IMG/VR virus record: IMGVR_UViG_2537562231_000011
Source: a virus
Taxonomy: Duplodnaviria; Heunggongvirae; Uroviricota; Caudoviricetes
DNA length: 39,723 bases
Direction: 5' to 3' (one strand)
Part shown: positions 8,087 through 36,267 of the stretch, one piece after another
Position numbering within the stretch: position 1 is the stretch's first letter
Layout: every line of letters begins with the position of its first letter
The notes under the pieces: generated by a model
The model's database searches: none
Seen by the model: the letters and a program-made list of their open reading frames with translations, nothing else
Told to the model about the DNA's origin: nothing
Program-made: the position numbers and the translations under genes

Positions 8087-8271
8087 TTTCTTTTCTTCCT
8101 ATCAATTTGAAATTATTAACTTTTAGTGTTGTCAGCAACCATTGATCCACAATAGACAAAAGAAAGATGTTTTTTTTGCTTTACATGAAGCAGAAGTGGA
8201 TCAATACTTATATCAAACTTGATAACTAAGTTTAGTTATCAAATTTCGTAACTTTTTAGGATAGATGAATC
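8087..8271. promoter_or_regulatory. Divergent early control region (operators and candidate early promoter)
   Basis: AT-rich 185 bp. 10-bp inverted repeat ATTGATCCAC (8141-8150) / GTGGATCAAT (8196-8205). 24-bp near-palindrome TTGATAACTAAG/TTTAGTTATCAA (8219-8242). Candidate -35 TTTACA (8180-8185) and -10 AATACT (8203-8208) with 17-bp spacing. Confidence 0.45.
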
Positions 8272-18322: not shown

Positions 18323-18524
18323 ATGGCTGGCTGACTGCCTGGTCCCTCCCGCGCCGCAGCCGTTCACGTTTGGTGCATCGGTCACTTACAACCTGCAACT
18401 GCTGGCGGTGATTAAAAACTGCAACGTGGACAAGGCCAGCATCCGCCGTCTGGAGACACAGCGACAGCATGAATTTACTGATATGGCCGGAACGACTGCT
18501 GTTCCGGCAGGAAAGACGAAGTAA
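18153..18524 (+). CDS. o-spanin (Rz1-like lipoprotein), overlapping the i-spanin in another frame; start uncertain
   Basis: Lipobox-like LTGC followed by a proline-rich sequence (VPVPPVPIPAEW...PPAPQP); begins inside the i-spanin gene and extends beyond it. Confidence 0.45.
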   Translation: MKNSRTCSTARNSRALSAGHWQRCLLPLCLCLMMWLTGCGGPSVKFVPVPPVPIPAEWLADCLVPPAPQPFTFGASVTYNLQLLAVIKNCNVDKASIRRLETQRQHEFTDMAGTTAVPAGKTK

Positions 18525-18534
18525 GGAAAAAGGT

Positions 18535-18762
18535 ATGGATGATTCAGATTGTGCTCAGGCAGTCATGGAGCGTGCAACAGAACGCGCCCTTTGTGACCGG
18601 CTGACACGTAAGCGCCGGGTGGCGGAGACACCGGGCAGGCGTGTATGCGCGGACTGCGGGGGTGACATTCCGGCTGCCCGTCTGGTTGCCGTGCCGGATG
18701 CCATCCGTTGTGTGAACTGCCAGAACATCATGGAGGCCGGTCATGTGGGTCAGCATCGTTAA
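18535..18762 (+). CDS. TraR/DksA-family C4 zinc-finger protein
   Basis: 75 codons from ATG 18535 with AAGGAAAAAGG ribosome-binding site; CADCGG...(17)...CVNCQ zinc-finger spacing. Confidence 0.6.
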   Translation: MDDSDCAQAVMERATERALCDRLTRKRRVAETPGRRVCADCGGDIPAARLVAVPDAIRCVNCQNIMEAGHVGQHR

Positions 18763-19054
18763 AGATTATGTCGTGCCGATCCTGTCGGCAACGGCCACAG
18801 CCGGGGGGATCTTTATGGCGCTGATGCGCAAAACCTTTGTCCCCCGCGAGGCCTTTGAAAAACTCTCCGACCGGGTTGAGCGGGTGGAGAGCCGGATTTC
18901 CGGCCTGCCCACGCAGCAGGAGGTGAACAGACTCAATATCGAAATCACCACCCTGCGCGGTGAGCTTAAGGCCACCAATGCCACCCTGAAATCCGTCTCC
19001 CATCAGAACGAACTGCTGCTGGAGCAGGCTGTAAGGAAAAAACACAATGAGTGA
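18743..19054 (+). CDS. Small membrane protein (Mu gp25-like position)
   Basis: 103 aa; N-terminal hydrophobic helix then coiled-coil. Confidence 0.45.
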   Translation: MWVSIVKDYVVPILSATATAGGIFMALMRKTFVPREAFEKLSDRVERVESRISGLPTQQEVNRLNIEITTLRGELKATNATLKSVSHQNELLLEQAVRKKHNE

Positions 19055-19337
19055 TTTCATTACTGAAGATCAGCGTCTTGTCATTCTGCGGTCGCTGGCG
19101 GATTACAACGGCGAACTGGGCGAATCCGTGCTTCAGGACTGCCTGGATGATTACGGCCACCGCGTGTCCCGCGACACCGTTCACACCCACATTGCCTGGC
19201 TTGCTGAGCAGGGACTGGTGCGTAAGCGCACGCTTGTTAACGGTTATTTCATCGCTGAACTGACCGGCCGGGGTCAGGATGTGGCGGAAGGTCGTGCCAC
19301 CGTTCCGGGTGTGAAGAAACCACGCGCAAGGGGGTAA
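19047..19337 (+). CDS. Hypothetical protein (Mu gp26-like position)
   Basis: 96 aa, translationally coupled to neighbours. Confidence 0.45.
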   Translation: MSDFITEDQRLVILRSLADYNGELGESVLQDCLDDYGHRVSRDTVHTHIAWLAEQGLVRKRTLVNGYFIAELTGRGQDVAEGRATVPGVKKPRARG

Positions 19338-19339
19338 CG

Positions 19340-19921
19340 ATGGATAAGCCGACGCGTGGCCGTGTACGCAAGGTGGATTTGCTCCCCGACAGCATCCGTA
19401 AGCCGCTGCTGGAAATGCTGCGTGAAAAACGCCTGACGCAGGTCCAGATCCGCGAGGAAATCAACCGTCTGATCCGTGAGGCAGGCCTGCCGGAAGAGCA
19501 GCAGCTTTCACCGGCGGCCATCAGCCGGGAAGCCTCCCGTAATGAGCTGATTGCCCGTAATCTGCGTGATTTACGCGAGCAGACAAAAGCCATGATGGCC
19601 GAACTGGGGGATAAGCCGACCGGTGAAACCACGGCACTGATTCTGGAGATGTCCCGTGCCCTGATGTACCGCCGTCTGCGTGCCGCCACCGAATCCCTGA
19701 ACAGCGACAGCGATGTGGATATGCGCCTTATTAAGGACATCCTCCTGTCGGCACAGCGTGCGGAAAGTGCCGCCGAGCGCAGCATTAAGCGTGAAAAAGA
19801 AATCCGGGCCGCATTTGCTGAAGAGATGGCGAACGCCGTCACCGACGAGTTGCGCGGCGTGGATGGCATGAGCGAGCAGATAGAATTCCGTATCAGGCAG
19901 ATGCTGCTTGGTAAGGCGTAG
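19340..19921 (+). CDS. Putative terminase small subunit (Mu gp27 / DUF3486-like)
   Basis: 193 aa, basic N-terminus, immediately upstream of the large terminase module. Confidence 0.55.
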   Translation: MDKPTRGRVRKVDLLPDSIRKPLLEMLREKRLTQVQIREEINRLIREAGLPEEQQLSPAAISREASRNELIARNLRDLREQTKAMMAELGDKPTGETTALILEMSRALMYRRLRAATESLNSDSDVDMRLIKDILLSAQRAESAAERSIKREKEIRAAFAEEMANAVTDELRGVDGMSEQIEFRIRQMLLGKA

Positions 19922-19931
19922 GAGGTGAATC

Positions 19932-20180
19932 GTGGTAACAGATAACCGCTCACTGATGAGCAGTGCTCATCAGAAGGCATTCAGTCTTGCAACACAGTTA
20001 CCTCCTGAAACCATAAAAGCGTGTCGTGAGTTGACTGAACTCAGCATTGCCGGGGAAATATCCCTGGAACAACTGCATTCGCTGCTGGCAGGGGCTGTCA
20101 CTGATGAGTTGAGTGGCGTGGACGTGATGACTGAAGAGCTTGAGTTCCGAATCAAAAGCATTCTGACAGGTAAAGCCTGA
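19932..20180 (+). CDS. Small protein carrying a duplicate of the gp27-like C-terminal tail
   Basis: GTG start after GGAGGTGA. C-terminus AVTDELSGVDVMTEELEFRIKSILTGKA parallels AVTDELRGVDGMSEQIEFRIRQMLLGKA of the upstream gene. Confidence 0.4.
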   Translation: MVTDNRSLMSSAHQKAFSLATQLPPETIKACRELTELSIAGEISLEQLHSLLAGAVTDELSGVDVMTEELEFRIKSILTGKA

Positions 20181-21844
20181 TGAACAAAGCCAAAGAAAAG
20201 TCTCCTTCACTGATACAAATGACACCTCCCCGCAAAATTGATCTGTCCGGTGAAAAAGCCCTGCTGGGCGTGGATGTGCCGGACAGCCTTGATTTGCCCG
20301 GTGATATGCCGGTGTTTCTGGATTATCAGGCCCGCTGGTTTGCAGATGAAAGTCAGGTCTGCATCGCGGAGAAATCCCGACGCACCGGGCTTACCTGGGC
20401 GGAAGCCGGGCGTAACGTCATTACCGCCGCAAAGCCTAAGCGTCGTGGTGGCCGTAATGTGTTTTATGTGGGGTCAAAACAGGAGATGGCGCTGGAATAT
20501 ATTTCTGCCTGCGCGCTGTTCTCCCGTGCCTTTAACCAGCTGGCAGATGCTGATGTGTATGAGCAGACATTCTGGGATCGGGATAAAAAAGAAGAAATTC
20601 TGACCTACATGATCCGCTTTCCGAACAGTGGATTCAAAATTCAGGCATTGTCTTCCCGTCCGTCAAACCTGCGCGGTCTTCAGGGGGATGTGGTGATTGA
20701 TGAAGCCGCGTTCCACGAGTCACTGGATGAGCTTCTCAAGGCGGCAATGGCGCTTACCATGTGGGGCGCACGCGTGCGCATTATTTCCACGCATAACGGC
20801 GTCGATAATCTGTTTAATCAGTACATTCAGGAAGCCCGCGAGGGGCGCAAGGATTACAGCGTCCACCGCATAACCCTGGATGATGCCATTGCGGACGGGC
20901 TGTACCGTCGTATCTGTTACGTCACCGATCAGGAATGGTCACCGGAAAGCGAGCAGAAATGGCGTGATGATCTCTACAAAAACGCCCCGACCCGTGAGGA
21001 TGCCGACGAGGAATACGGCTGTATCCCGAAAAAATCCGGCGGTGCCTATATTCCTCACGCGCTTATTGAAATGGCGATGATTCGTGACATCCCGATTCTG
21101 ACGTTTGAAGCCCCGGACGACTTCATCAGCCGTGCCGCATGGCTGCGTGAATCGGAAGTTTTAACCTGGTGTGAAGAACATTTAAAACCGCTTACAGAGA
21201 AATTAAATCCCCGTTCCCGCTTCAGCTTCGGGGAAGACTTTGCCCGCACCGGTGACCTGTCCTGCTTTGTGCTGCTGGAAATCACCGAACTCCTGGCAAA
21301 GCGCGAGGTGTTTCGCGTGGAGCTGCGCAACCTGCCGTATGCCCAGCAGGAACAGGTGATGATGTACATCCTGACCCGCGTTCCGGCGCTGGTCGGTGCG
21401 GCGTTCGACGCCACCGGTAACGGCGGCTATCTGGCAGAGGCCGCACTGCTGGCCTTTGGCCCGGACATCATCGACTGCGTGATGTTGTCGCCGAAGTGGT
21501 ACGGCGAGTGGATGCCAAAACTGAAAGCCGAGTTTGAAGATCAGAATATCCTCGTCGCCCGCCATCAGACCACGCTTGATGATTTGCGCCATGTGAAGGT
21601 GGTGAATGGTATCCCGCAAATCGACAAGGGGCGCACGAAGGACCAGAACGCAACGGCTGCGAACGCCCGCCGCCATGGTGATTTTGCCGTGGCACTCTGT
21701 ATGGCAAACCGGGCGTCATACATGGAGGGTTTCATCCTGGATGAATCAGCCTGTCAGGCGCTGCCGGAGCGGTCGCGGGCAATGGAGGGCGGTTATCGTG
21801 ATGACGATGAGGCATATCATGAATTTGATCGGGGGTGCTGGTAG
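20180..21844 (+). CDS. Terminase large subunit (Mu gp28-like)
   Basis: 554 aa; ATPase-like motifs (VVIDEAAFH) followed by a nuclease-type C-terminal domain; correct position. Confidence 0.85.
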   Translation: MNKAKEKSPSLIQMTPPRKIDLSGEKALLGVDVPDSLDLPGDMPVFLDYQARWFADESQVCIAEKSRRTGLTWAEAGRNVITAAKPKRRGGRNVFYVGSKQEMALEYISACALFSRAFNQLADADVYEQTFWDRDKKEEILTYMIRFPNSGFKIQALSSRPSNLRGLQGDVVIDEAAFHESLDELLKAAMALTMWGARVRIISTHNGVDNLFNQYIQEAREGRKDYSVHRITLDDAIADGLYRRICYVTDQEWSPESEQKWRDDLYKNAPTREDADEEYGCIPKKSGGAYIPHALIEMAMIRDIPILTFEAPDDFISRAAWLRESEVLTWCEEHLKPLTEKLNPRSRFSFGEDFARTGDLSCFVLLEITELLAKREVFRVELRNLPYAQQEQVMMYILTRVPALVGAAFDATGNGGYLAEAALLAFGPDIIDCVMLSPKWYGEWMPKLKAEFEDQNILVARHQTTLDDLRHVKVVNGIPQIDKGRTKDQNATAANARRHGDFAVALCMANRASYMEGFILDESACQALPERSRAMEGGYRDDDEAYHEFDRGCW

Positions 21845-24749: not shown

Positions 24750-24830
24750 GGTCAGTGGCGGGGGTCGAACCCGCATACATGATCCACCCGGAGGCAGGCA
24801 CCGACTTTACCAGTTAAGCGTACACTGACC
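24750..24830 (-). ncRNA. tRNA-like structured element (T-arm and D-arm consensus, no anticodon stem); function unknown
   Basis: On the minus strand: 9-bp closing stem, D-arm-like GCTT-AACTGGTA-AAGT and T-arm GCGGG-TTCGACC-CCCGC. I could not form an anticodon stem. On the plus strand it is followed by TGTTTATTTTAT. Confidence 0.25.
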
Positions 24831-28983: not shown

Positions 28984-29262
28984 ATGACAACCATTTTTAT
29001 TAAACCTGCGCCGGGATGCCTGATCCGCGATCCCGACACGATGACTCCGCTCTCTCAGGACGGGGAAGAGAAACCCTTCACTCCGTTCTGGTGCCGCCGT
29101 CTTAATGATGGCGACGTCATTGTGGTGGATAAAACGGCGGAGCCTGCCCCGGCTGCCACAACTGCTAATACCGGCGCGGCGGCAAAACCAGCGGGAGCGG
29201 TAGCAGAAAAAACTGCGGCGGTGGCTGAAAAAACCGCAGCATCAGATAAGGGGACGTCCTGA
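28984..29262 (+). CDS. Small protein (Mu gp38-like) with Ala-rich low-complexity C-terminus
   Basis: 92 aa, directly upstream of the sheath gene. Confidence 0.45.
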   Translation: MTTIFIKPAPGCLIRDPDTMTPLSQDGEEKPFTPFWCRRLNDGDVIVVDKTAEPAPAATTANTGAAAKPAGAVAEKTAAVAEKTAASDKGTS

Positions 29263-30764
29263 TGATTAACTTTGATTATATCGGCGATAACAATCGCATT
29301 CCGCTGGTACAGATTGAAATCAATAATTCAATGGCCGTGACCGGCACTCCACCACAGCGTCAGGCGGTACTGTTGTTTGGTCAGGCTGCAATGAAAGACA
29401 CTACCATTCAGGGGCGCGGTCAGCTTGATGTACCAGTACGTATTACCCGAGCTTCACAAGCAAGAGAACTCTGGGGGCGAGGTTCCATGATTGCACTGAT
29501 GGTAGAGGAATTTATCGCCATTAACCCTGACACAGAGTTATATGCCATTGCACAGGGGGCTGGAACAGGTCAGTCCAGGGCATGCGTGATGAATATCATT
29601 GGAACAGCATTGGCAGACGGGGTGTTAAGTGTTTACATCGGCGGTCGCCGTTACCTCCTGCCCGTCAGTAAGGGGAAAAAAGGTAAAGAGCTTGTGGCAG
29701 AGCTGGCTAAGGTCATTAACGCTGACACTGATGCGCCATTCACTGCTATCGCAGCTGAAGTCAGTGGTGATAATGCTGAAGGACTTAAAGGCAGCATGGG
29801 GGTTAACGCCCGCTTTATCGGTGAATGCTCAGCTCATGATTTACGGGTGAACTATTATGACGGTGAAACTACACCGGCCGGTCTTACGCTGGAGCTCGTC
29901 GCGCCAACACAGAAGGCAACAAACCCCGATATCACCCGTAGCGTCTCAGGGATGGGGAATCGTCAGTACAACTACATCGTCATGCCCTATAAGGATGCGG
30001 CAAATCTCAAAATTCTGGCGGATGAACTGCTGAAACGCTGGGGACCGGTAAAAATGTCGGACGGTATGGTCTGGATGGCGCATACCGGCACCTTCGGTAC
30101 GGCAACCAGTTTTGGTGAATCCCGTAATGACTTCCTGTTTACCTGCACTTCTATTCCTAAAGCACCAGAGCCGGATTATGTCTGGGCGGCCTCCATTTGT
30201 GCGGTCTGTGCGCCCTCCCTGTCAACGGATCCGGCCCGACCATTACAGACACTGGCGCTGCCTGCCCGTATGGCACCTGAAGCACCGGCTCGTCTGACGC
30301 GGGAAGAGCGAAACAGCCTGCTTTATACCGGCATGTCCACGGTGACCGTCGCGGCCGCGGATGTGGTGCAGATTGAACGTCAGGTGACGATGTACCGTCA
30401 GAATGCATACGGCGAAATCGATCCCAGCTATCTGGATGTGGAAACCATCTACACCCTGTCATATCTGCGTTATTCCCTGCGCACCTTTATCACGCAGCGT
30501 TTTCCGCGCCATAAACTGGCTGATGACGGGACGCCCGTTCGTGCCGGTCAGAATATCGTGACACCGGAGATCATGAAACTTCAGTTAATTTCGCTGGGGG
30601 AAGAATGGGTGGATCTGGGACTGGTCGAAAATCTGGACACCTTTAAAAAGAATCTGCTCGTGGAGCGCAACACAAAAGACCGTAACCGTCTGGATGTGAT
30701 GTGTACACCGGATCTGGTTAACCAGTTCCGCTTCATGGCCGCGCAGATCCGTTTCATTTTGTGA
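29262..30764 (+). CDS. Contractile tail sheath protein (Mu L / gp39-like)
   Basis: 500 aa; position followed by a small tube gene. Confidence 0.85.
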   Translation: MINFDYIGDNNRIPLVQIEINNSMAVTGTPPQRQAVLLFGQAAMKDTTIQGRGQLDVPVRITRASQARELWGRGSMIALMVEEFIAINPDTELYAIAQGAGTGQSRACVMNIIGTALADGVLSVYIGGRRYLLPVSKGKKGKELVAELAKVINADTDAPFTAIAAEVSGDNAEGLKGSMGVNARFIGECSAHDLRVNYYDGETTPAGLTLELVAPTQKATNPDITRSVSGMGNRQYNYIVMPYKDAANLKILADELLKRWGPVKMSDGMVWMAHTGTFGTATSFGESRNDFLFTCTSIPKAPEPDYVWAASICAVCAPSLSTDPARPLQTLALPARMAPEAPARLTREERNSLLYTGMSTVTVAAADVVQIERQVTMYRQNAYGEIDPSYLDVETIYTLSYLRYSLRTFITQRFPRHKLADDGTPVRAGQNIVTPEIMKLQLISLGEEWVDLGLVENLDTFKKNLLVERNTKDRNRLDVMCTPDLVNQFRFMAAQIRFIL

Positions 30765-30772
30765 GGTAAGGC

Positions 30773-31138
30773 ATGAGCGGAAAACAGTATCAGGGCACGG
30801 CCACCATCCGTGTGAACGGGCAGGAGTACGACACCCTTGAGGGGGCCACGTTCTCCCCGTCCGGCTTTGAGCGTGAAGTGGTGAAAGGCGCGAAAGTTTA
30901 CGGCTATCGCGAGAAACCCCGTGAGGCGACGCTGGACTGTAAATTCCCGGCGGGCGGAGAAGGTTCACCGGCTGCCGATGAAATCAACACCTGGACTGCG
31001 GTCACGATTGAGTTCGTGGCCGATACCGGTGAAGTCCACATGATGACGAAGGCCTGGAGCAGTGAACCGGCCTCGCTTGACGGTGGTGGTGATATCTCCG
31101 CGAAGTTCGCCAGCGCCACCAGTACCCGTGTCCAGTAA
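30773..31138 (+). CDS. Tail tube protein (Mu M / gp40-like)
   Basis: 121 aa immediately after the sheath gene. Confidence 0.75.
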   Translation: MSGKQYQGTATIRVNGQEYDTLEGATFSPSGFEREVVKGAKVYGYREKPREATLDCKFPAGGEGSPAADEINTWTAVTIEFVADTGEVHMMTKAWSSEPASLDGGGDISAKFASATSTRVQ

Positions 31139-31152
31139 TCAGGAAAAATGTA

Positions 31153-31629
31153 ATGAGCACACGTAAGAAAAAAACGGCGGTTTCTGACGAGGCCGTGATG
31201 GAGGCTATCCGGGATGCACTTGAAGACGGCGATCCCCGCACCGCCGGGCTGGCTGAACAACTGGCGAACGGCTATGTGGATCTGCTCGACGGTCTGCCGT
31301 TCGGGGAATCCCGTGAATACCGCGTCACCTTCCGCGAACTGACGGCAAAAGACAGCATTGATGCGGAGAGCGAGGCCGAGCGTCTTATGGAAACCCGAAA
31401 CGGTCCGGTTCTTGTGGCCTCACCGGCACTGCGCGGCATTGCGCTGCTGCGCCGTCAGATTGCCGCTGTCGGCCAGATTGAGGGGCCATTGTCTCCGCGT
31501 CAGATAGGACAGCTCAGCGAGCGCGATCTCTCCCGACTGATGGCGGCAGTAAGCCTGCTTGATTCCGCGATGGCCGGAAAGCTGGTCGCTGAACGGGGGC
31601 GACCAGATGCAGTGCCGGGATCAGATTGA
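31153..31629 (+). CDS. Tail assembly chaperone (Mu gp41-like)
   Basis: 158 aa, acidic, between tube and tape measure. Confidence 0.55.
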   Translation: MSTRKKKTAVSDEAVMEAIRDALEDGDPRTAGLAEQLANGYVDLLDGLPFGESREYRVTFRELTAKDSIDAESEAERLMETRNGPVLVASPALRGIALLRRQIAAVGQIEGPLSPRQIGQLSERDLSRLMAAVSLLDSAMAGKLVAERGRPDAVPGSD

Positions 31630-31753
31630 AGAAGCCGCAATTGTGCTGGGGATGGTGACAAAAAGCGGCCCGGAGTGGGCGCTTAACCTCCCCTTATCGC
31701 AGCTTTACCGGCACTGCCGACAGACCGAAAAAATTCTCAGAACGAAGCAGTAA
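31607..31753 (+). CDS. Small ORF filling the chaperone-to-tape-measure gap (48 codons, +1 frame relative to the chaperone)
   Basis: ATG at 31607 after GGGGG; ends 3 bp before the tape measure start. Independent gene or frameshift extension is unresolved. Confidence 0.3.
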   Translation: MQCRDQIEEAAIVLGMVTKSGPEWALNLPLSQLYRHCRQTEKILRTKQ

Positions 31754-31756
31754 CCC

Positions 31757-33814
31757 ATGGCAAAAAACCTGAAAGCCTCCCTGATTGTCGATTTACTCGG
31801 CAATATTTCTGCCAAATCCCGCCAGTGGTCACAGGAGCTGGGGGCATTCTCCCGTTCCGGCAGGACGGGGCTGGGTGGTCTTGGAAATGCAGCACGTCGT
31901 GCCGGTCAGGAGACAGAACTTGTCGGCTCCCGTATGCAGCGAACGCTTGCCGGTGTTCGTGGCAGTATCCGCACGGTGACGTCAGATTTTGACCGCCTTC
32001 AGGGCAGCATTACCGGCACCATCGGGCGGATAAGCAACCTTTACGGGATGCTGGCGGGAGGGGCTGCGGTCTACGGGTTTAATAAAGCCTTTATCCGCCC
32101 GGCCGCAGAGATGGAGAACTATATTCTGCGTCTCAACGCCATTAATCATGGCGATACGGCAAAAACGGAAGCAGTGAAAGCCTGGGCGGTACAGAACGCC
32201 AAAGACACCACCTGGGGGCTGGCGGGGGTTATGCAGGAATACGCCTCCAGTCGCGGGTTCGGTATGAGTGACAGGGAAGCCCGTCGCTTTATTACCATGC
32301 TTCAGGATCAGGGCGGCTATCACGGCTGGTCACTGTCAGATGCACAGGGTGCGTCCCTGCAACTCAAACAGATGTTTGCCCGCCAGAGTATCCAGGCAGC
32401 GGACGCCAATATTCTGACCGGATACGGGATTAACGTTTACCAGTTGCTGGCCGATAAGCTGGGTGTAAACCAGAAGATCATCCGTGAGAAAGGCGAGAAA
32501 GGAAAACTGGGACCGGACAGCATTCGCCTGTTATTTCAGGTGATGGCCGAACAGGCAAAAGGTGCCCAGAAAAACGCCATGAATTCCTGGACGGGAATGA
32601 CGTCCATGATGGGCGATGTCTGGGACGGATTTGCCCGCGAGGTGATGGCAAAGGGACCGTTTGACAGCCTGAAAAAGAGCCTGAAAGGCTTTCTGGATTA
32701 TGCTGATGCGGCACAGAAAAGCGGCTTACAGGATAAGCTGGCCACACAGACGGCCTCAGCCCTGAATCAGGGATTTGAGTATGCCAGAGACGCTGCGACC
32801 GGCTTTTACCGGGTCATTCAGAAAGTCAGGGAAACGCTTCAGGCACTGCGCGACGCCGGTTATGGCGATGCGCTGGATCGCATTGGTCAGGGTGCGCAGA
32901 CCGCCGCAAAGTACCTGATGTATATGTATCTCGCCTCCCGTGCGCTGAAGGTGCTCAGGTTTGCGGGGACGGGGGCATTACGTCTCGGCGCAACCCCCTT
33001 ACGCTATGGCATGGCGATGACCTCCGTGCTGACGTCGCCCTTCCGCAAACCGCAGACCACTGTACCGGGAACGCAGCCCGGACGCGCTGGCCGGTTCCTG
33101 AATTTCCTTACCGGGGTAAATCCGGCTGCCGTTCAGCCCGTGCTGGTCACCAATTGGCCTGCGGGTGGCCTGGCCTCAGGTGGCGGGGATGTGGTGGTCA
33201 GCGGTGACGGCAAAACCGTGCGCGGCCGTAAAAAACGCGGCCCCGGACGTGGACGGGGTGTCACGACCGTCGTGACTGCCGGTGAGCAACTGGCGGAGAG
33301 TGCCGGTAAACAGGGCTTCTTCGGTCGTATGATGAGCCGTGCCGGTGGTCTGCTAACGGCGGCCGGAAACCGCATGGGGCTGGGGCGTTTTGCCGGGCTG
33401 TTCCGTGGTGCCGGTCGGCTGGGTGGTGGTGCCCTGTGGGCCGGTGCCATGGCGGCTCCTGTACTGCTGGACAGCAGCGCCAGTGCAGCCGATAAAGCCG
33501 GTGCCGTGGGTTCCCTTGCCGGAAGTATCGCCGGTGGCGCGCTGGGGGCGGCTGCCGGTCCGGTCGGGGTTGCCATTGGTTCCACGGTGGGCAGCTATCT
33601 CGGTGATTATCTGGGGGGCTGGCTGACGCAGGCCTGGCAGAAACTGCGTGGCGGCAGTGACGAAAACGGCGGACAGGCCACCGCGAAAACCGCCGCACGG
33701 GTGGAGCTTGTTGCCCCTGAAGGCTGGCGGGCGCGCAGTATTGATGTGGATGATACCGCACAGCATGGCCTGGATGTGAACGTCTGGAACGGAGGGAACT
33801 ATGGCCTCTACTGA
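31757..33814 (+). CDS. Tail tape measure protein (Mu gp42-like)
   Basis: 685 aa, Gly/Ala-rich C-terminal region, position after the chaperone. Confidence 0.8.
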   Translation: MAKNLKASLIVDLLGNISAKSRQWSQELGAFSRSGRTGLGGLGNAARRAGQETELVGSRMQRTLAGVRGSIRTVTSDFDRLQGSITGTIGRISNLYGMLAGGAAVYGFNKAFIRPAAEMENYILRLNAINHGDTAKTEAVKAWAVQNAKDTTWGLAGVMQEYASSRGFGMSDREARRFITMLQDQGGYHGWSLSDAQGASLQLKQMFARQSIQAADANILTGYGINVYQLLADKLGVNQKIIREKGEKGKLGPDSIRLLFQVMAEQAKGAQKNAMNSWTGMTSMMGDVWDGFAREVMAKGPFDSLKKSLKGFLDYADAAQKSGLQDKLATQTASALNQGFEYARDAATGFYRVIQKVRETLQALRDAGYGDALDRIGQGAQTAAKYLMYMYLASRALKVLRFAGTGALRLGATPLRYGMAMTSVLTSPFRKPQTTVPGTQPGRAGRFLNFLTGVNPAAVQPVLVTNWPAGGLASGGGDVVVSGDGKTVRGRKKRGPGRGRGVTTVVTAGEQLAESAGKQGFFGRMMSRAGGLLTAAGNRMGLGRFAGLFRGAGRLGGGALWAGAMAAPVLLDSSASAADKAGAVGSLAGSIAGGALGAAAGPVGVAIGSTVGSYLGDYLGGWLTQAWQKLRGGSDENGGQATAKTAARVELVAPEGWRARSIDVDDTAQHGLDVNVWNGGNYGLY

Positions 33815-35159
33815 CACGCCGGGGCGTGGCTCCTTTCGTGGCGTACCGTTCCTGGTTTATCAGGAGCAGCGGGAACGGGGCGGACGTAACATTGTGCGCC
33901 GTGAATACCCACTGCGTGAAAGCGGCGGTGCGGATGATCTGGGGCCAAAACTCCCGGAGTTCACATTCACGGTTCTGGTGACCGGAGACGATCTTCAGAC
34001 ACAGCGAAGCCGCCTGCGTGATGCGCTGCGTGCACCCGGTGCCGGTGAACTGATGCACCCGGATTACGGCACGTTAAACGTGCTGATAAACAGCTTTGAA
34101 AGCCGTTATAACGCCAGCGAGCAGGGAACGGTTGAGTTCACGATCAACGTGATCCCCGCCAGTGACGATACCGCCCCTGCGGTGGCAGAAGATACGGCAG
34201 CTGCGCTGGAGCAGAAAAGCGGCTCAGCAATGAATCAGCTGTTTAACACGCTTTCAGACGGCTGGACGGTGATTTCAGACGGTCTGCATGATGTACAGGC
34301 CATGACCGACACCATCAGCGATAAGATTGATGCACTGGAGAATGCCGTTTCGGGGATGGGGATTGTGCAGGATATCAGTGCCTTTACGGCCAGTTTTACT
34401 GCCCTGAAAGGCAATGCCGCCGCCCTGATTAATGCGCCCCGTCGCATGGCTGAATCGCTGGCCGGAATGTTTGCCGTGCTGACCGGGCTGCCCGGCGATC
34501 CTTCCCTGTCTCTGACCGGAAAAGCCGGAACGCCGTCCGGCAGCCTGACCACAAACCGTGACAGCATGGCAGAGCAGGCCATGCCGCAGCTGTACCGCAC
34601 ACTTTCCTCCCTGCGTTACACCCTCAGCGAACAGGATGATCCACAGCGCCTGATTGGCCTGACGCCTGCGGCACAGAAAAATATCCGTCTGCTGCGGAGC
34701 GTGATGCAGAGTGCAACCCTGGTGTCGCAGGCACAGACGCTCGGAAAACTGCTGGATCAGGTCATCCGGCAGAATACGACGCACGTTCAGGATACTGACC
34801 GTTCGGGCGGACTGGCCTGGCTGGAAAGTTCTGCTGATGTGCAGCGTATCAACCGGGATTTGAGCGATGCCATGGAACAACAGGTGCTGGATCTGTCCGC
34901 ACAGGGCTATACCGGGACTGCCCTTGCATTACGTGATGCAGGGCTTGCGCTGACAGAAGATTTAACCACACGGAGCGTGCATCTTCCCGGTGCTTTTCAG
35001 GTCATGGTTCGCACCACCGAACCGGCACTGGTCACGCTGTACCGTGCCACCGGCAACAGCAGTCGCTGGCAGTATTTTGTCCGCAGAAACAATATCCCCG
35101 ATCCGGTTTTTGTTCCGGGTGGCCGCAGCGTGGAGGTGATCAGTGAGCAGCAGGATTGA
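33801..35159 (+). CDS. DNA circularisation protein (Mu N / gp43-like)
   Basis: 452 aa; position after the tape measure; N-terminal FRGVPFLV...RRNIVRREYPLRE matches the family as I recall it. Confidence 0.7.
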   Translation: MASTDTPGRGSFRGVPFLVYQEQRERGGRNIVRREYPLRESGGADDLGPKLPEFTFTVLVTGDDLQTQRSRLRDALRAPGAGELMHPDYGTLNVLINSFESRYNASEQGTVEFTINVIPASDDTAPAVAEDTAAALEQKSGSAMNQLFNTLSDGWTVISDGLHDVQAMTDTISDKIDALENAVSGMGIVQDISAFTASFTALKGNAAALINAPRRMAESLAGMFAVLTGLPGDPSLSLTGKAGTPSGSLTTNRDSMAEQAMPQLYRTLSSLRYTLSEQDDPQRLIGLTPAAQKNIRLLRSVMQSATLVSQAQTLGKLLDQVIRQNTTHVQDTDRSGGLAWLESSADVQRINRDLSDAMEQQVLDLSAQGYTGTALALRDAGLALTEDLTTRSVHLPGAFQVMVRTTEPALVTLYRATGNSSRWQYFVRRNNIPDPVFVPGGRSVEVISEQQD

Positions 35160-36267
35160 ACTGTATATCGGTGGCAGTATTTTTTCCGGCTGGCTGACGG
35201 TCAGCGTCCGTCGCTCGCTGGAGCATCTGGCCGGGTCGTTTGAACTGGGGCTGATGCTGCCCGGTGAGCGCATCCCCTCAGCCCTGCGAACCGGTCAGTC
35301 CCTGACGCTCAGAATTAACGGGCAGACGGTCATCAGTGGCTGGCTGGATCAGGTCAGTCAGCGGATCAGTGCAACCCGTCATCAGATCAGCATCAGCGGT
35401 CGGGATAAAACCGGCGACCTGGTGGACTGTGCCGCCATCCATCCCGGCAGCCAGTGGCGCAACCGGACGCTGGCACAGATTGCCGCAGATTTATGTGCGC
35501 CCTTCGGGATAGCCGTGCGCTGGCAGGTTAACGACGACACGGCTGCACGCCCCTTCAGCTCTTTTACGCTGGAAAACTCAGAAACCGTGGCGGATGCGCT
35601 GACCCGTGCTGCCCGGCATCGCGGGGTGCTGGTGACCAGTAATGCTGACGGCGATCTGGTGTTCACCCAGGCAGGAAGCCAGCAGACGGACAGACTGGTG
35701 CTGGGAGATAACCTGCTTGATGCCGATTACAACACGGACTGGCGAGGACGATACAGCGAATACCGTGTCCGGGGACACGGGCGCGGTGGTGGCAAACGGG
35801 GAGACAGCGAATCCGCCGCCCGTCTGGCAGCACCTGTGGGCGTCATCAGTGATGAGCAGATCGGCCGCTACCGGTCGAAAATCATCCTCGCCGATCAACA
35901 GACAGACACCACCGGTGCACGGCAGCGTGCCCTGCGTGAAATGCGCCGTGCGATTGCCCGTTCAGAACGGTTTTCTGCCACCGTGCGTGGCTGGTTCCGG
36001 GATGATGGCCGGTTATGGGATGTCAATCTGCTGACCGGTGTTTCAGCCCTGCGTTTCGGTATAGAACAGACTGAACTGCTGGTCTGTCAGGTGGAGTTTT
36101 TACTTGATGAACATAACGGGGAAGTCACCCGGCTGGTACTGGCACCGCGTGACGGCTTTATCGTTCCGGCAGAGCCGGACAGTAAGGGCCGGGGTGGTTC
36201 CGGTGACGATGTTGATGCCTTTATTCGCCAGCAGATGAAAAAACAGGGGATCAGCTTTGATGAATGA
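35143..36267 (+). CDS. Baseplate hub protein (Mu P / gp44-like)
   Basis: 374 aa; GTG start; position. Confidence 0.7.
   Translation: MSSRIELYIGGSIFSGWLTVSVRRSLEHLAGSFELGLMLPGERIPSALRTGQSLTLRINGQTVISGWLDQVSQRISATRHQISISGRDKTGDLVDCAAIHPGSQWRNRTLAQIAADLCAPFGIAVRWQVNDDTAARPFSSFTLENSETVADALTRAARHRGVLVTSNADGDLVFTQAGSQQTDRLVLGDNLLDADYNTDWRGRYSEYRVRGHGRGGGKRGDSESAARLAAPVGVISDEQIGRYRSKIILADQQTDTTGARQRALREMRRAIARSERFSATVRGWFRDDGRLWDVNLLTGVSALRFGIEQTELLVCQVEFLLDEHNGEVTRLVLAPRDGFIVPAEPDSKGRGGSGDDVDAFIRQQMKKQGISFDE

Follow-up and report, generated by a model that had tools for sequence, protein, structure and literature searches.

A hybrid small open reading frame with a gp27-like tail between the terminase genes of an Escherichia coli Mu-like prophage

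In the IMG/VR virus record IMGVR_UViG_2537562231_000011, we examined orf82, a small open reading frame (ORF) that lies between the terminase genes of an Escherichia coli Mu-like prophage. The window, by which we mean the whole 39,723-nucleotide stretch analyzed, comprises the left two-thirds of this prophage together with the adjoining chromosome, and its positions 19000-20600 are 100% identical to several complete genomes, for example that of JE86-ST05. The late operon runs in the order gp25-like (DUF2730), gp26-like, gp27-like, orf82, gp28, and portal (Table 1), and the neighboring gp27 scores 116 bits on PF11985 against a cut-off of 28. The original prediction, an earlier reading of this DNA made from its letters, described an 82-codon gene with a strong ribosome-binding site between the gp27-like and large terminase genes. 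Such an ORF is indeed present. Its GTG start lies 6 nt downstream of an AGGAGG Shine-Dalgarno (SD) sequence, for which pairing with the tail of the 16S rRNA (the anti-SD duplex) is predicted at -11.5 kcal/mol, compared to -11.8 kcal/mol for gp27.

Table 1. Features around orf82 in the window (positions are those of the window; HTH, helix-turn-helix; aa, amino acids; AF2, AlphaFold2; dN and dS, nonsynonymous and synonymous divergence).
Feature	Position	Strand	Evidence
gp26-like winged-helix gene, upstream member of the translationally linked chain	19047-19337	+	weak HTH Pfam matches; phrog_436; Mu gp26 annotated as winged-HTH protein
gp27-like small terminase, 193 aa	19340-19921	+	Pfam PF11985 Phage_Mu_Gp27, E=3.1e-33; phrog_426 'terminase small subunit', E=8.6e-55
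gp27 C-terminal tail (residues 163-193), original of the repeated motif	19826-19918	+	BLASTP, hhalign, AF2 model
Sharply bounded variable patch at the gp27/gp28 junction	19864-20240	+	sliding identity, tail informative sites, GC dip
SD sequence AGGAGG of orf82, overlapping the gp27 TAG stop	19920-19925	+	sequence; kept in all alleles and in the orf67 relative
orf82, 82 codons, hybrid small gene, GTG start at 19932	19932-20180	+	ORF; PHROG 30922 member
orf82 N-part, residues 1-54, predicted three-helix unit	19932-20093	+	homologous to orf67 (L012) and orf69 (Salmonella L020)
Perfect 21-nt palindrome, orf82 codons 8-14	19953-19973		repeat search; arms CTGATGAGCA-G-TGCTCATCAG
orf82 tail, residues 52-82, diverged copy of the gp27 C-terminus	20085-20177	+	BLASTP, hhalign, dS/dN
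CTGATGA junction: orf82 stop TGA (20178-20180) overlapping gp28 ATG (20180-20182)	20176-20182	+	sequence
gp28 large terminase; first ~20 codons within the variable patch	20180-21844	+	phrog_2 'terminase large subunit', E=6.3e-43

The C-terminus of orf82 parallels that of the upstream protein, as the original prediction had claimed, and the similarity is far above chance. When we aligned the two tails, residues 52-82 of orf82 matched residues 163-193 of gp27 with 20 of 31 positions identical and 26 of 31 positive (BLASTP, E=1e-12), and the DNA beneath them was ~70-79% identical over ~95 nt. An hhalign comparison of the orf82 and gp27 families returned a probability of 95.9% (E=6e-9) and aligned residues 49-82 with 160-193 alone, so the fall to chance level that the original prediction had named as a point against itself did not occur. 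Reciprocally, the gp27 tail matches positions 51-82 of the PHROG profile to which orf82 belongs (E=6e-8). The tail motif of the gp27 family, A-x-A-V-T/S-D/E-E-L-R-G-x-D-G-M/I-S-E-..-L-G-K-A, is present in orf82, with R172, G176, and S178 of gp27 replaced there (R172S, G176V, and S178T). The AF2 model of orf82 (mean predicted local distance difference test [pLDDT] score of 73) contains helices at residues 5-22, 25-39, and 45-59 (pLDDT 79-86), a low-confidence loop at 60-67, and a terminal helix at 68-79. That of gp27, which is of low confidence (pLDDT 58), likewise passes from a long helix through a loop at 172-178 to a terminal helix at 179-189. The two tails are thus predicted to share a helix-loop-helix shape. 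A Foldseek search of viral structures with the orf82 model gave no match at E<=0.001, and we found no solved structure related to gp27.

This likeness stops at the tail. Measured against the Mu gp27 (gene D) family (PF11985/DUF3486/phrog_426), orf82 shares homology between its last 31-34 residues and the conserved C-terminus, as well as the predicted tail shape, but it has neither the N-terminal helix-turn-helix region nor the long central helices, and it is under far weaker constraint. No Pfam family matched orf82 at E<=0.1, and so neither did PF11985, and when compared with gp27 residues 1-162, the N-part gave no significant similarity (shuffle p >= 0.1). On these comparisons we do not regard orf82 as a member of the gp27/DUF3486 family. 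We also rejected a derivation of the N-part from the 'LPxxxxK' helix-turn-helix region of gp27 or from gp27 residues 128-162, as shuffled Smith-Waterman comparisons gave p >= 0.1 throughout and hhalign aligned the tail only. A gp27-orf82 fusion by read-through or frameshift was rejected as well, the orf82 frame carrying a TGA at 19926-19928, just upstream of its start.

The N-part has relatives of its own. Over its full length, orf82 belongs to a PHROG family of unassigned function (phrog_30922, E=7.6e-57, all 82 residues on all 82 profile positions), and its N-part is related to two shorter ORFs, orf67 and orf69 (Smith-Waterman scores of 137 and 79, respectively, p<0.002), with a further HMMER match in P0013. 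The first of these, of 67 codons, takes the same position in a sibling prophage (L012), and the second, of 69 codons, comes from two Salmonella prophages (L020 and L021); neither carries a gp27-like tail. Both are followed by a spacer before gp28, which holds a complete antisense ORF in L020 and L021 and a 39-codon remnant of it in L012. The complete antisense ORF has 72 codons and lies between orf69 and gp28 (L020, 3429-3647, minus strand), and the remnant (L012, ~4205-4323, minus strand) has a strong ribosome-binding site, GAGGAGAG; neither matched Pfam, PHROG, or NCBIfam. The orf82 site is occupied by other cassettes in Salmonella prophages and in L012. One of them, orf87, is an 87-89-codon ORF between gp27 and gp28 whose stop overlaps the gp28 ATG (L016, 3093-3356; L017, 3087-3356), and its 3' end holds two collinear gp27-tail patches split by a 16-nt deletion, a decayed and frameshifted relic of a tail. 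Searches of Pfam, NCBIfam, and PHROG with orf67, orf69, orf87, and the antisense 72-aa ORF gave nothing beyond PHROG 30922.

Given this two-part homology, the relationship between the neighboring tails bears directly on how orf82 arose. Between the gp27 tail of the window and the orf82 tail, dS is saturated and dN is 0.25. The gp27 tail of the O157 type resembles the window gp27 in its 5' half and the orf82 tail in its 3' half and junction. The second half of the orf82 tail, taken together with the TGATGA junction and the first ~20 gp28 codons, is ~80% identical to the O157-type gp27/gp28 junction. Synonymous saturation between the neighboring tails and the likeness of this second half to the O157-type allele indicate that the tail is not a recent local duplication. 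Where the original prediction spoke of a duplicated tail, then, the homology stands but the idea of a recent copy of the neighbor does not.

A sliding comparison with two insert-free relatives (CI5 and O157 Z1835) gives at least ~90% identity, and mostly 93-100%, on either side of the patch, the borders lying near codon 175 of gp27 and at codon 20 of gp28, whereas within the patch identity drops to 60-73% or the sequence is absent. GC content falls to 0.45-0.53 over 19850-20300, versus 0.57-0.61 in the flanks. By these measures the patch is a bounded mosaic cassette. A possible origin is recombination between an orf67-type and an O157-type phage; alternatively, a tail-bearing form may have been ancestral to the whole small-ORF family. 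We also considered that the insert-free O157 type had itself arisen recently from an orf82-bearing form, by deletion through recombination between the tails. The tail mosaic is of the kind expected, but the 3' half and the gp28 start are only ~80% identical to any sampled orf82 allele, so we rejected a recent deletion, the data favoring neither direction of the event. In a separate observation, prophage L007 (E. coli strain 48) combines lysis genes and gp26 of the O157 type with a gp27 allele of the window type and orf82; this mixture of backgrounds indicates that the block of gp27 tail and orf82 moves between them by homologous recombination.

Saturation of the tails, and the resemblance of the second tail to another allele type, point to exchange between phages and so also weigh against a tandem duplication, in which a ~260-nt unit (the gp27 tail plus the first ~50 gp28 codons) would have been doubled, the N-part being a fast-diverged gp28 N-terminus fused to the tail and orf67 and orf69 being later tail-losers. 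The arrangement itself is what such a duplication predicts, with the tails 259 nt apart and the order tail, start, N-part, tail, gp28, and an ungapped alignment pairs residues 9-46 of orf82 with residues 1-38 of the gp28 beside it (p ~0.0014 by shuffling), in the same register in several alleles. That p value, however, fails correction for roughly 40 comparisons, and an hhalign comparison of the small-ORF family with gp28 N-termini found nothing (probability of 0.1%). CTGATGA does recur at orf82 codons 8-9 and where gp28 begins, Salmonella has a tail-bearing small ORF of its own in orf87, and orf67 ends in GKT, as if its tail had been internally deleted; yet neither orf67 nor orf69 shows similarity to gp28 N-termini (p 0.3-0.99). 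We therefore consider tandem duplication an improbable origin.

To place orf82 among related prophages, we drew on 5426 complete E. coli genomes. The 1.6-kb prophage region was present in 231 of these, and the orf82-specific part in only 25 of the 231. Absence from close relatives, which the original prediction had named as counting against it, is thus the common state (~206 of 231, or ~89%). Insert-free relatives such as O157:H7 Z1835 and CI5 have gp28 immediately after gp27, the two genes overlapping at TGATG. There is no orf82 in Mu, D108, SfMu, or the Yersinia Mu-like phages: these match the region in two separate pieces, and when orf82 is the tblastn query, gp27 tails alone are found in them. 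This agrees with the original prediction, by which Mu is not known to have an equivalent gene. Since only 25 of the 231 prophage-bearing genomes carry it and Mu-type phages do not, orf82 is dispensable.

Beyond this set, searches among billions of predicted proteins returned orf82 from E. coli only, at 79-98% identity, with 79 member sequences in the 90%-identity cluster, and IMG/VR held eight further copies; a search of IMG/VR with orf69 gave no match, no orf82 relative was found among GTDB species representatives, and the orf67-type spacer was not found in the complete E. coli genomes. We read 16 copies (that of the window and 15 other loci), which represent 9 distinct DNA alleles. All 16 have 82 intact codons, with the start alternating between GTG and ATG, and all 16 keep the TGATG stop/start junction. 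A few metagenome-derived orf82 proteins contain in-frame deletions or a frameshift. On a 2.1-kb Logan contig (L004, 371-613), the first 24 orf82 codons are joined to sequence beside baseplate genes; either the prophage has lost a large internal part or the assembly is chimeric.

We compared selective constraint on orf82 and its neighbors across eight orf82-bearing prophages. In gp27, 42 sites vary, distributed 1/1/40 over codon positions 1/2/3, and the protein is the same in seven of the eight loci, differing by one residue in the other (L005). In orf82, 48 of 249 sites vary, distributed 13/15/20. The dN/dS ratio is ~0 for gp27, 0.04-0.12 for gp28, and ~0.44 for orf82 (four independent pairs, Fisher p=0.016). 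Divided by part, it is 0.38 for the N-part and 0.60 for the tail, the latter value not being significant (tail range, 0.2-0.6). The gp27 tail is identical in all alleles, while at least 8 residues vary in the orf82 tail, including G61S, V56A, L69P, F71S, K74R, S75G, and A82S/V, and one orf82 allele has a proline in the terminal helix. Judged from these substitutions, constraint on orf82 is weak, with a near-neutral pattern, and the gp27-like tail appears to drift rather than to be conserved.

Nearly even substitution across codon positions raises the question of whether orf82 is a protein-coding gene at all, the alternative being that the segment acts as RNA or DNA, for instance through the palindrome, and that the open frame is incidental. 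With 50 inferred mutations, and 3.4% of point changes creating stops, the frame would stay intact by chance in 18% of cases. Against this, every allele has a strong and correctly spaced SD sequence, the start is ATG or GTG throughout, no allele has lost the stop/start overlap, dN/dS lies below 1, and the N-part is conserved as protein from E. coli to Salmonella. The palindrome would fold into a strong RNA hairpin (-17.2 kcal/mol, z=-3.8), and divergent alleles likewise have a strong hairpin at the same place, but its covariation is not significant and it has no Rfam match. We give a noncoding explanation hardly any credence.

The palindrome itself differs between allele groups. Other alleles and the orf67 and orf69 relatives have a different one ~5 nt upstream (GGGCGCTGA-TTA-TCAGCGCCC in L012). 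Strong palindromes are found in every allele group, but pair counts were not above controls, and we rejected the idea that the 5' part of orf82 contains a conserved RNA hairpin. The palindrome may serve as an RNA element, a protein site, or a recombination hot spot. As a side observation, the heptamer CTGATGA occurs three times in orf82, at 19953-19959 (codons 8-9), at 20100-20106 (the start of the tail), and at 20176-20182 (the overlap with gp28), and an 11-nt exact repeat, TCACTGATGAG, connects the first two sites.

What orf82 may do at present is suggested by the initiation signals of gp28. Where the gp28 start overlaps an upstream stop (in the window, O157, and Salmonella L016), its anti-SD pairing is predicted at -3.7 to -3.8 kcal/mol, and where gp28 stands alone (Mu and L012), it is predicted at -6.3 to -6.4 kcal/mol. 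The orf82-gp28 pair shows both a stop/start overlap and a weak downstream ribosome-binding site, two features by which translational coupling can be recognized. In a consensus scan, 18400-21000 had no sigma-70-like promoter and orf82 no terminator-like site on the plus strand.

Our preferred reading, to which we assign a probability of roughly 0.55, is that orf82 is a hybrid made by recombination and tolerated at an exchange hot spot, that its present role is mainly that of a ribosome relay to gp28, and that its tail is a relic. Recombination within the short hypervariable gp27/gp28 patch of this E. coli Mu-like prophage lineage would have produced it, the 5' 160 nt and strong ribosome-binding site coming from a family of small accessory ORFs found directly 3' of gp27 in some E. 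coli and Salmonella prophages, and the 3' ~90 nt and TGATG overlap with gp28 coming from the 3' end of another, diverged allele of gp27. Probably translated within the late operon, orf82 would hand terminating ribosomes to the weakly initiating gp28 start, in place of the gp27-to-gp28 coupling of insert-free relatives. Because the gp28 ribosome-binding site is weak wherever the start overlaps an upstream stop, we consider this relay the most likely present role. Such a role would keep the frame open while leaving the protein little constrained, and the gp27-like tail would have been retained as the carrier of the gp28 initiation region rather than as a maintained terminase-binding module.

Several observations weigh against this interpretation. 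The coupling of orf82 to gp28 is a prediction from sequence alone, and gp28 works without coupling in the orf67-type prophages. Some protein-level selection also appears to act on orf82, because its dN/dS is significantly below 1 and its N-part is still recognizable, with a dN/dS of ~0.3, across the distance between E. coli and Salmonella prophages (gp27 dS of ~1.5). Nor does the tail show simple decay: it is in frame and keeps 14 of the 17 positions that are invariant in gp27, and none of the copies that we read has lost the intact frame. Finally, events could have run in either direction, toward a recombinant orf82 or from an orf82-like form ancestral to orf67. If orf82 has a function at the level of protein, it is more likely to reside in the three-helix N-part.

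The original prediction had suggested a different function, that of a decoy or adaptor, in which the orf82 tail would bind the N-terminal region of gp28, competing with gp27 or bridging to it, and would modulate terminase assembly, nuclease activity, or the timing of packaging. Its premise, that the C-termini of small terminases contact the large subunit, holds for lambda gpNu1-gpA and P22 gp3-gp2, where the C-terminal residues of the small subunit (TerS) bind the N-terminus of the large subunit (TerL), within its first ~23-58 residues (review PMC9611059). The duplicated segment of orf82 corresponds to this TerS/TerL interface, and the variable patch covers exactly the end of the gp27 tail and the first ~20 gp28 codons, although for the Mu-type terminase the resemblance is positional only. 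The tail of orf82 and the variable gp28 N-terminus are moreover inherited as one block; the tail is in frame, is 65% identical to that of gp27, and keeps most gp27-invariant residues; and the AF2 models give both tails the same helix-loop-helix, with a flexible loop of a kind typical of binding peptides. Nevertheless, in the same prophages the tail is invariant in gp27 and polymorphic in orf82, with fixed changes in addition at R172, G176, and S178, and although dN/dS for orf82 is below 1, purifying selection on its tail is not comparable to that on the gp27 tail. The N-part relatives orf67 and orf69 have no tail, and that of Salmonella orf87 has decayed. The strong ribosome-binding site predicts abundant orf82 protein, but a protein that competed with gp27 in quantity and with high affinity should damage packaging. 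An adaptor is unnecessary, as the same gp27 tail functions with two gp28 N-termini (those of the window and L012). Given also that the gene is missing from Mu and from most related prophage-bearing genomes, the evidence leans against this reading, which we judge unlikely.

As a variant of this idea, orf82 might be a tail mimic, its three-helix body presenting a gp27-type peptide to the N-terminus of the large terminase and so tuning assembly, restraining the nuclease before packaging, or masking the large terminase from host sensors; we would call this a long shot. Small proteins that disturb the assembly of small and large terminases are known from satellites, among them Ppi of Staphylococcus aureus pathogenicity islands (SaPIs), TerS variants, and Rpp of phage-inducible chromosomal islands (PICIs). 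These hijackers redirect a helper phage, and most of them bind TerS rather than mimic its tail. Unlike them, orf82 is encoded by the phage itself, within its own terminase operon.

A closer parallel may lie among accessory genes. The plasticity regions of Mu-like phages harbor accessory ORFs of 34-100 codons (Cazares et al. 2014, PMC4378225). Like these ORFs and the morons of lambdoid phages (PMC4378225), orf82 is short, sits at a fixed site among core late genes, is variably present, coincides with a GC dip, and has no assigned function. In contrast to a classical moron, no promoter or terminator was found for it, and it is predicted to be translationally chained to both neighbors; in contrast to the ORFs of that paper, it is partly copied from an adjacent core gene, which the paper does not describe. 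The stop/start overlap with gp28 and the weak gp28 SD sequence where it is overlapped are those of the coupled ATGA/TGATG pairs of phage late operons, except that the upstream partner has been swapped from the essential gp27 to a dispensable hybrid ORF. In the literature that we searched, we found neither a description of the orf82 tail repeat nor experiments on binding of this tail to the large terminase.

A number of further observations concern the rest of the window. The left end of the prophage, with an XRE-type repressor followed by transposase A, adjoins an rhs fragment and ybfC (window ~5930-8100, approximate coordinates converted from the JE86-ST05 annotation), and we therefore place the prophage in an rhs region; remnants of an ISAs1 transposase lie near this end. 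The window and the JE86-ST05 record are not base-for-base collinear over their full length, implying indels between them, and the tail sheath, tail tube, tape measure, and DNA circularization genes of JE86-ST05 are annotated as frameshifted (window ~29260-35160). The RefSeq annotation of JE86-ST05 also lists a 'tRNA-OTHER' between the minor head protein and virion morphogenesis genes (window ~24750-24829, minus strand). ARAGORN found no tRNA in the window, and Rfam gave nothing at gathering thresholds for this segment. Lastly, on the Logan contig P0017 the gp26 frame continues past the place of its stop codon into gp27, giving a fused protein of 291 residues; this reflects either read-through or an error of sequencing.

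The feature that was singled out between the terminase genes is real, neatly explained, and mostly ordinary, and orf82 looks more like a tolerated scar than a new regulator. As such it offers a clean and datable case of a mosaic junction making a hybrid ORF, in which the tail of an essential gene is fused to an accessory gene and the hybrid would persist by keeping the essential gene that follows linked to it in translation. The case further identifies the tail of gp27 and the N-terminus of gp28 as the exchangeable patch of Mu-type terminases and as an obvious candidate for the interface between the subunits, which in Mu has never been mapped. If it did bind the large terminase, the hybrid would count as a packaging modulator encoded by the phage itself and of an undescribed kind, which the evolutionary evidence makes unlikely; and were it a tail mimic, the fusion of an accessory gene to the tail of a core gene would represent an evolutionary route to such regulators.

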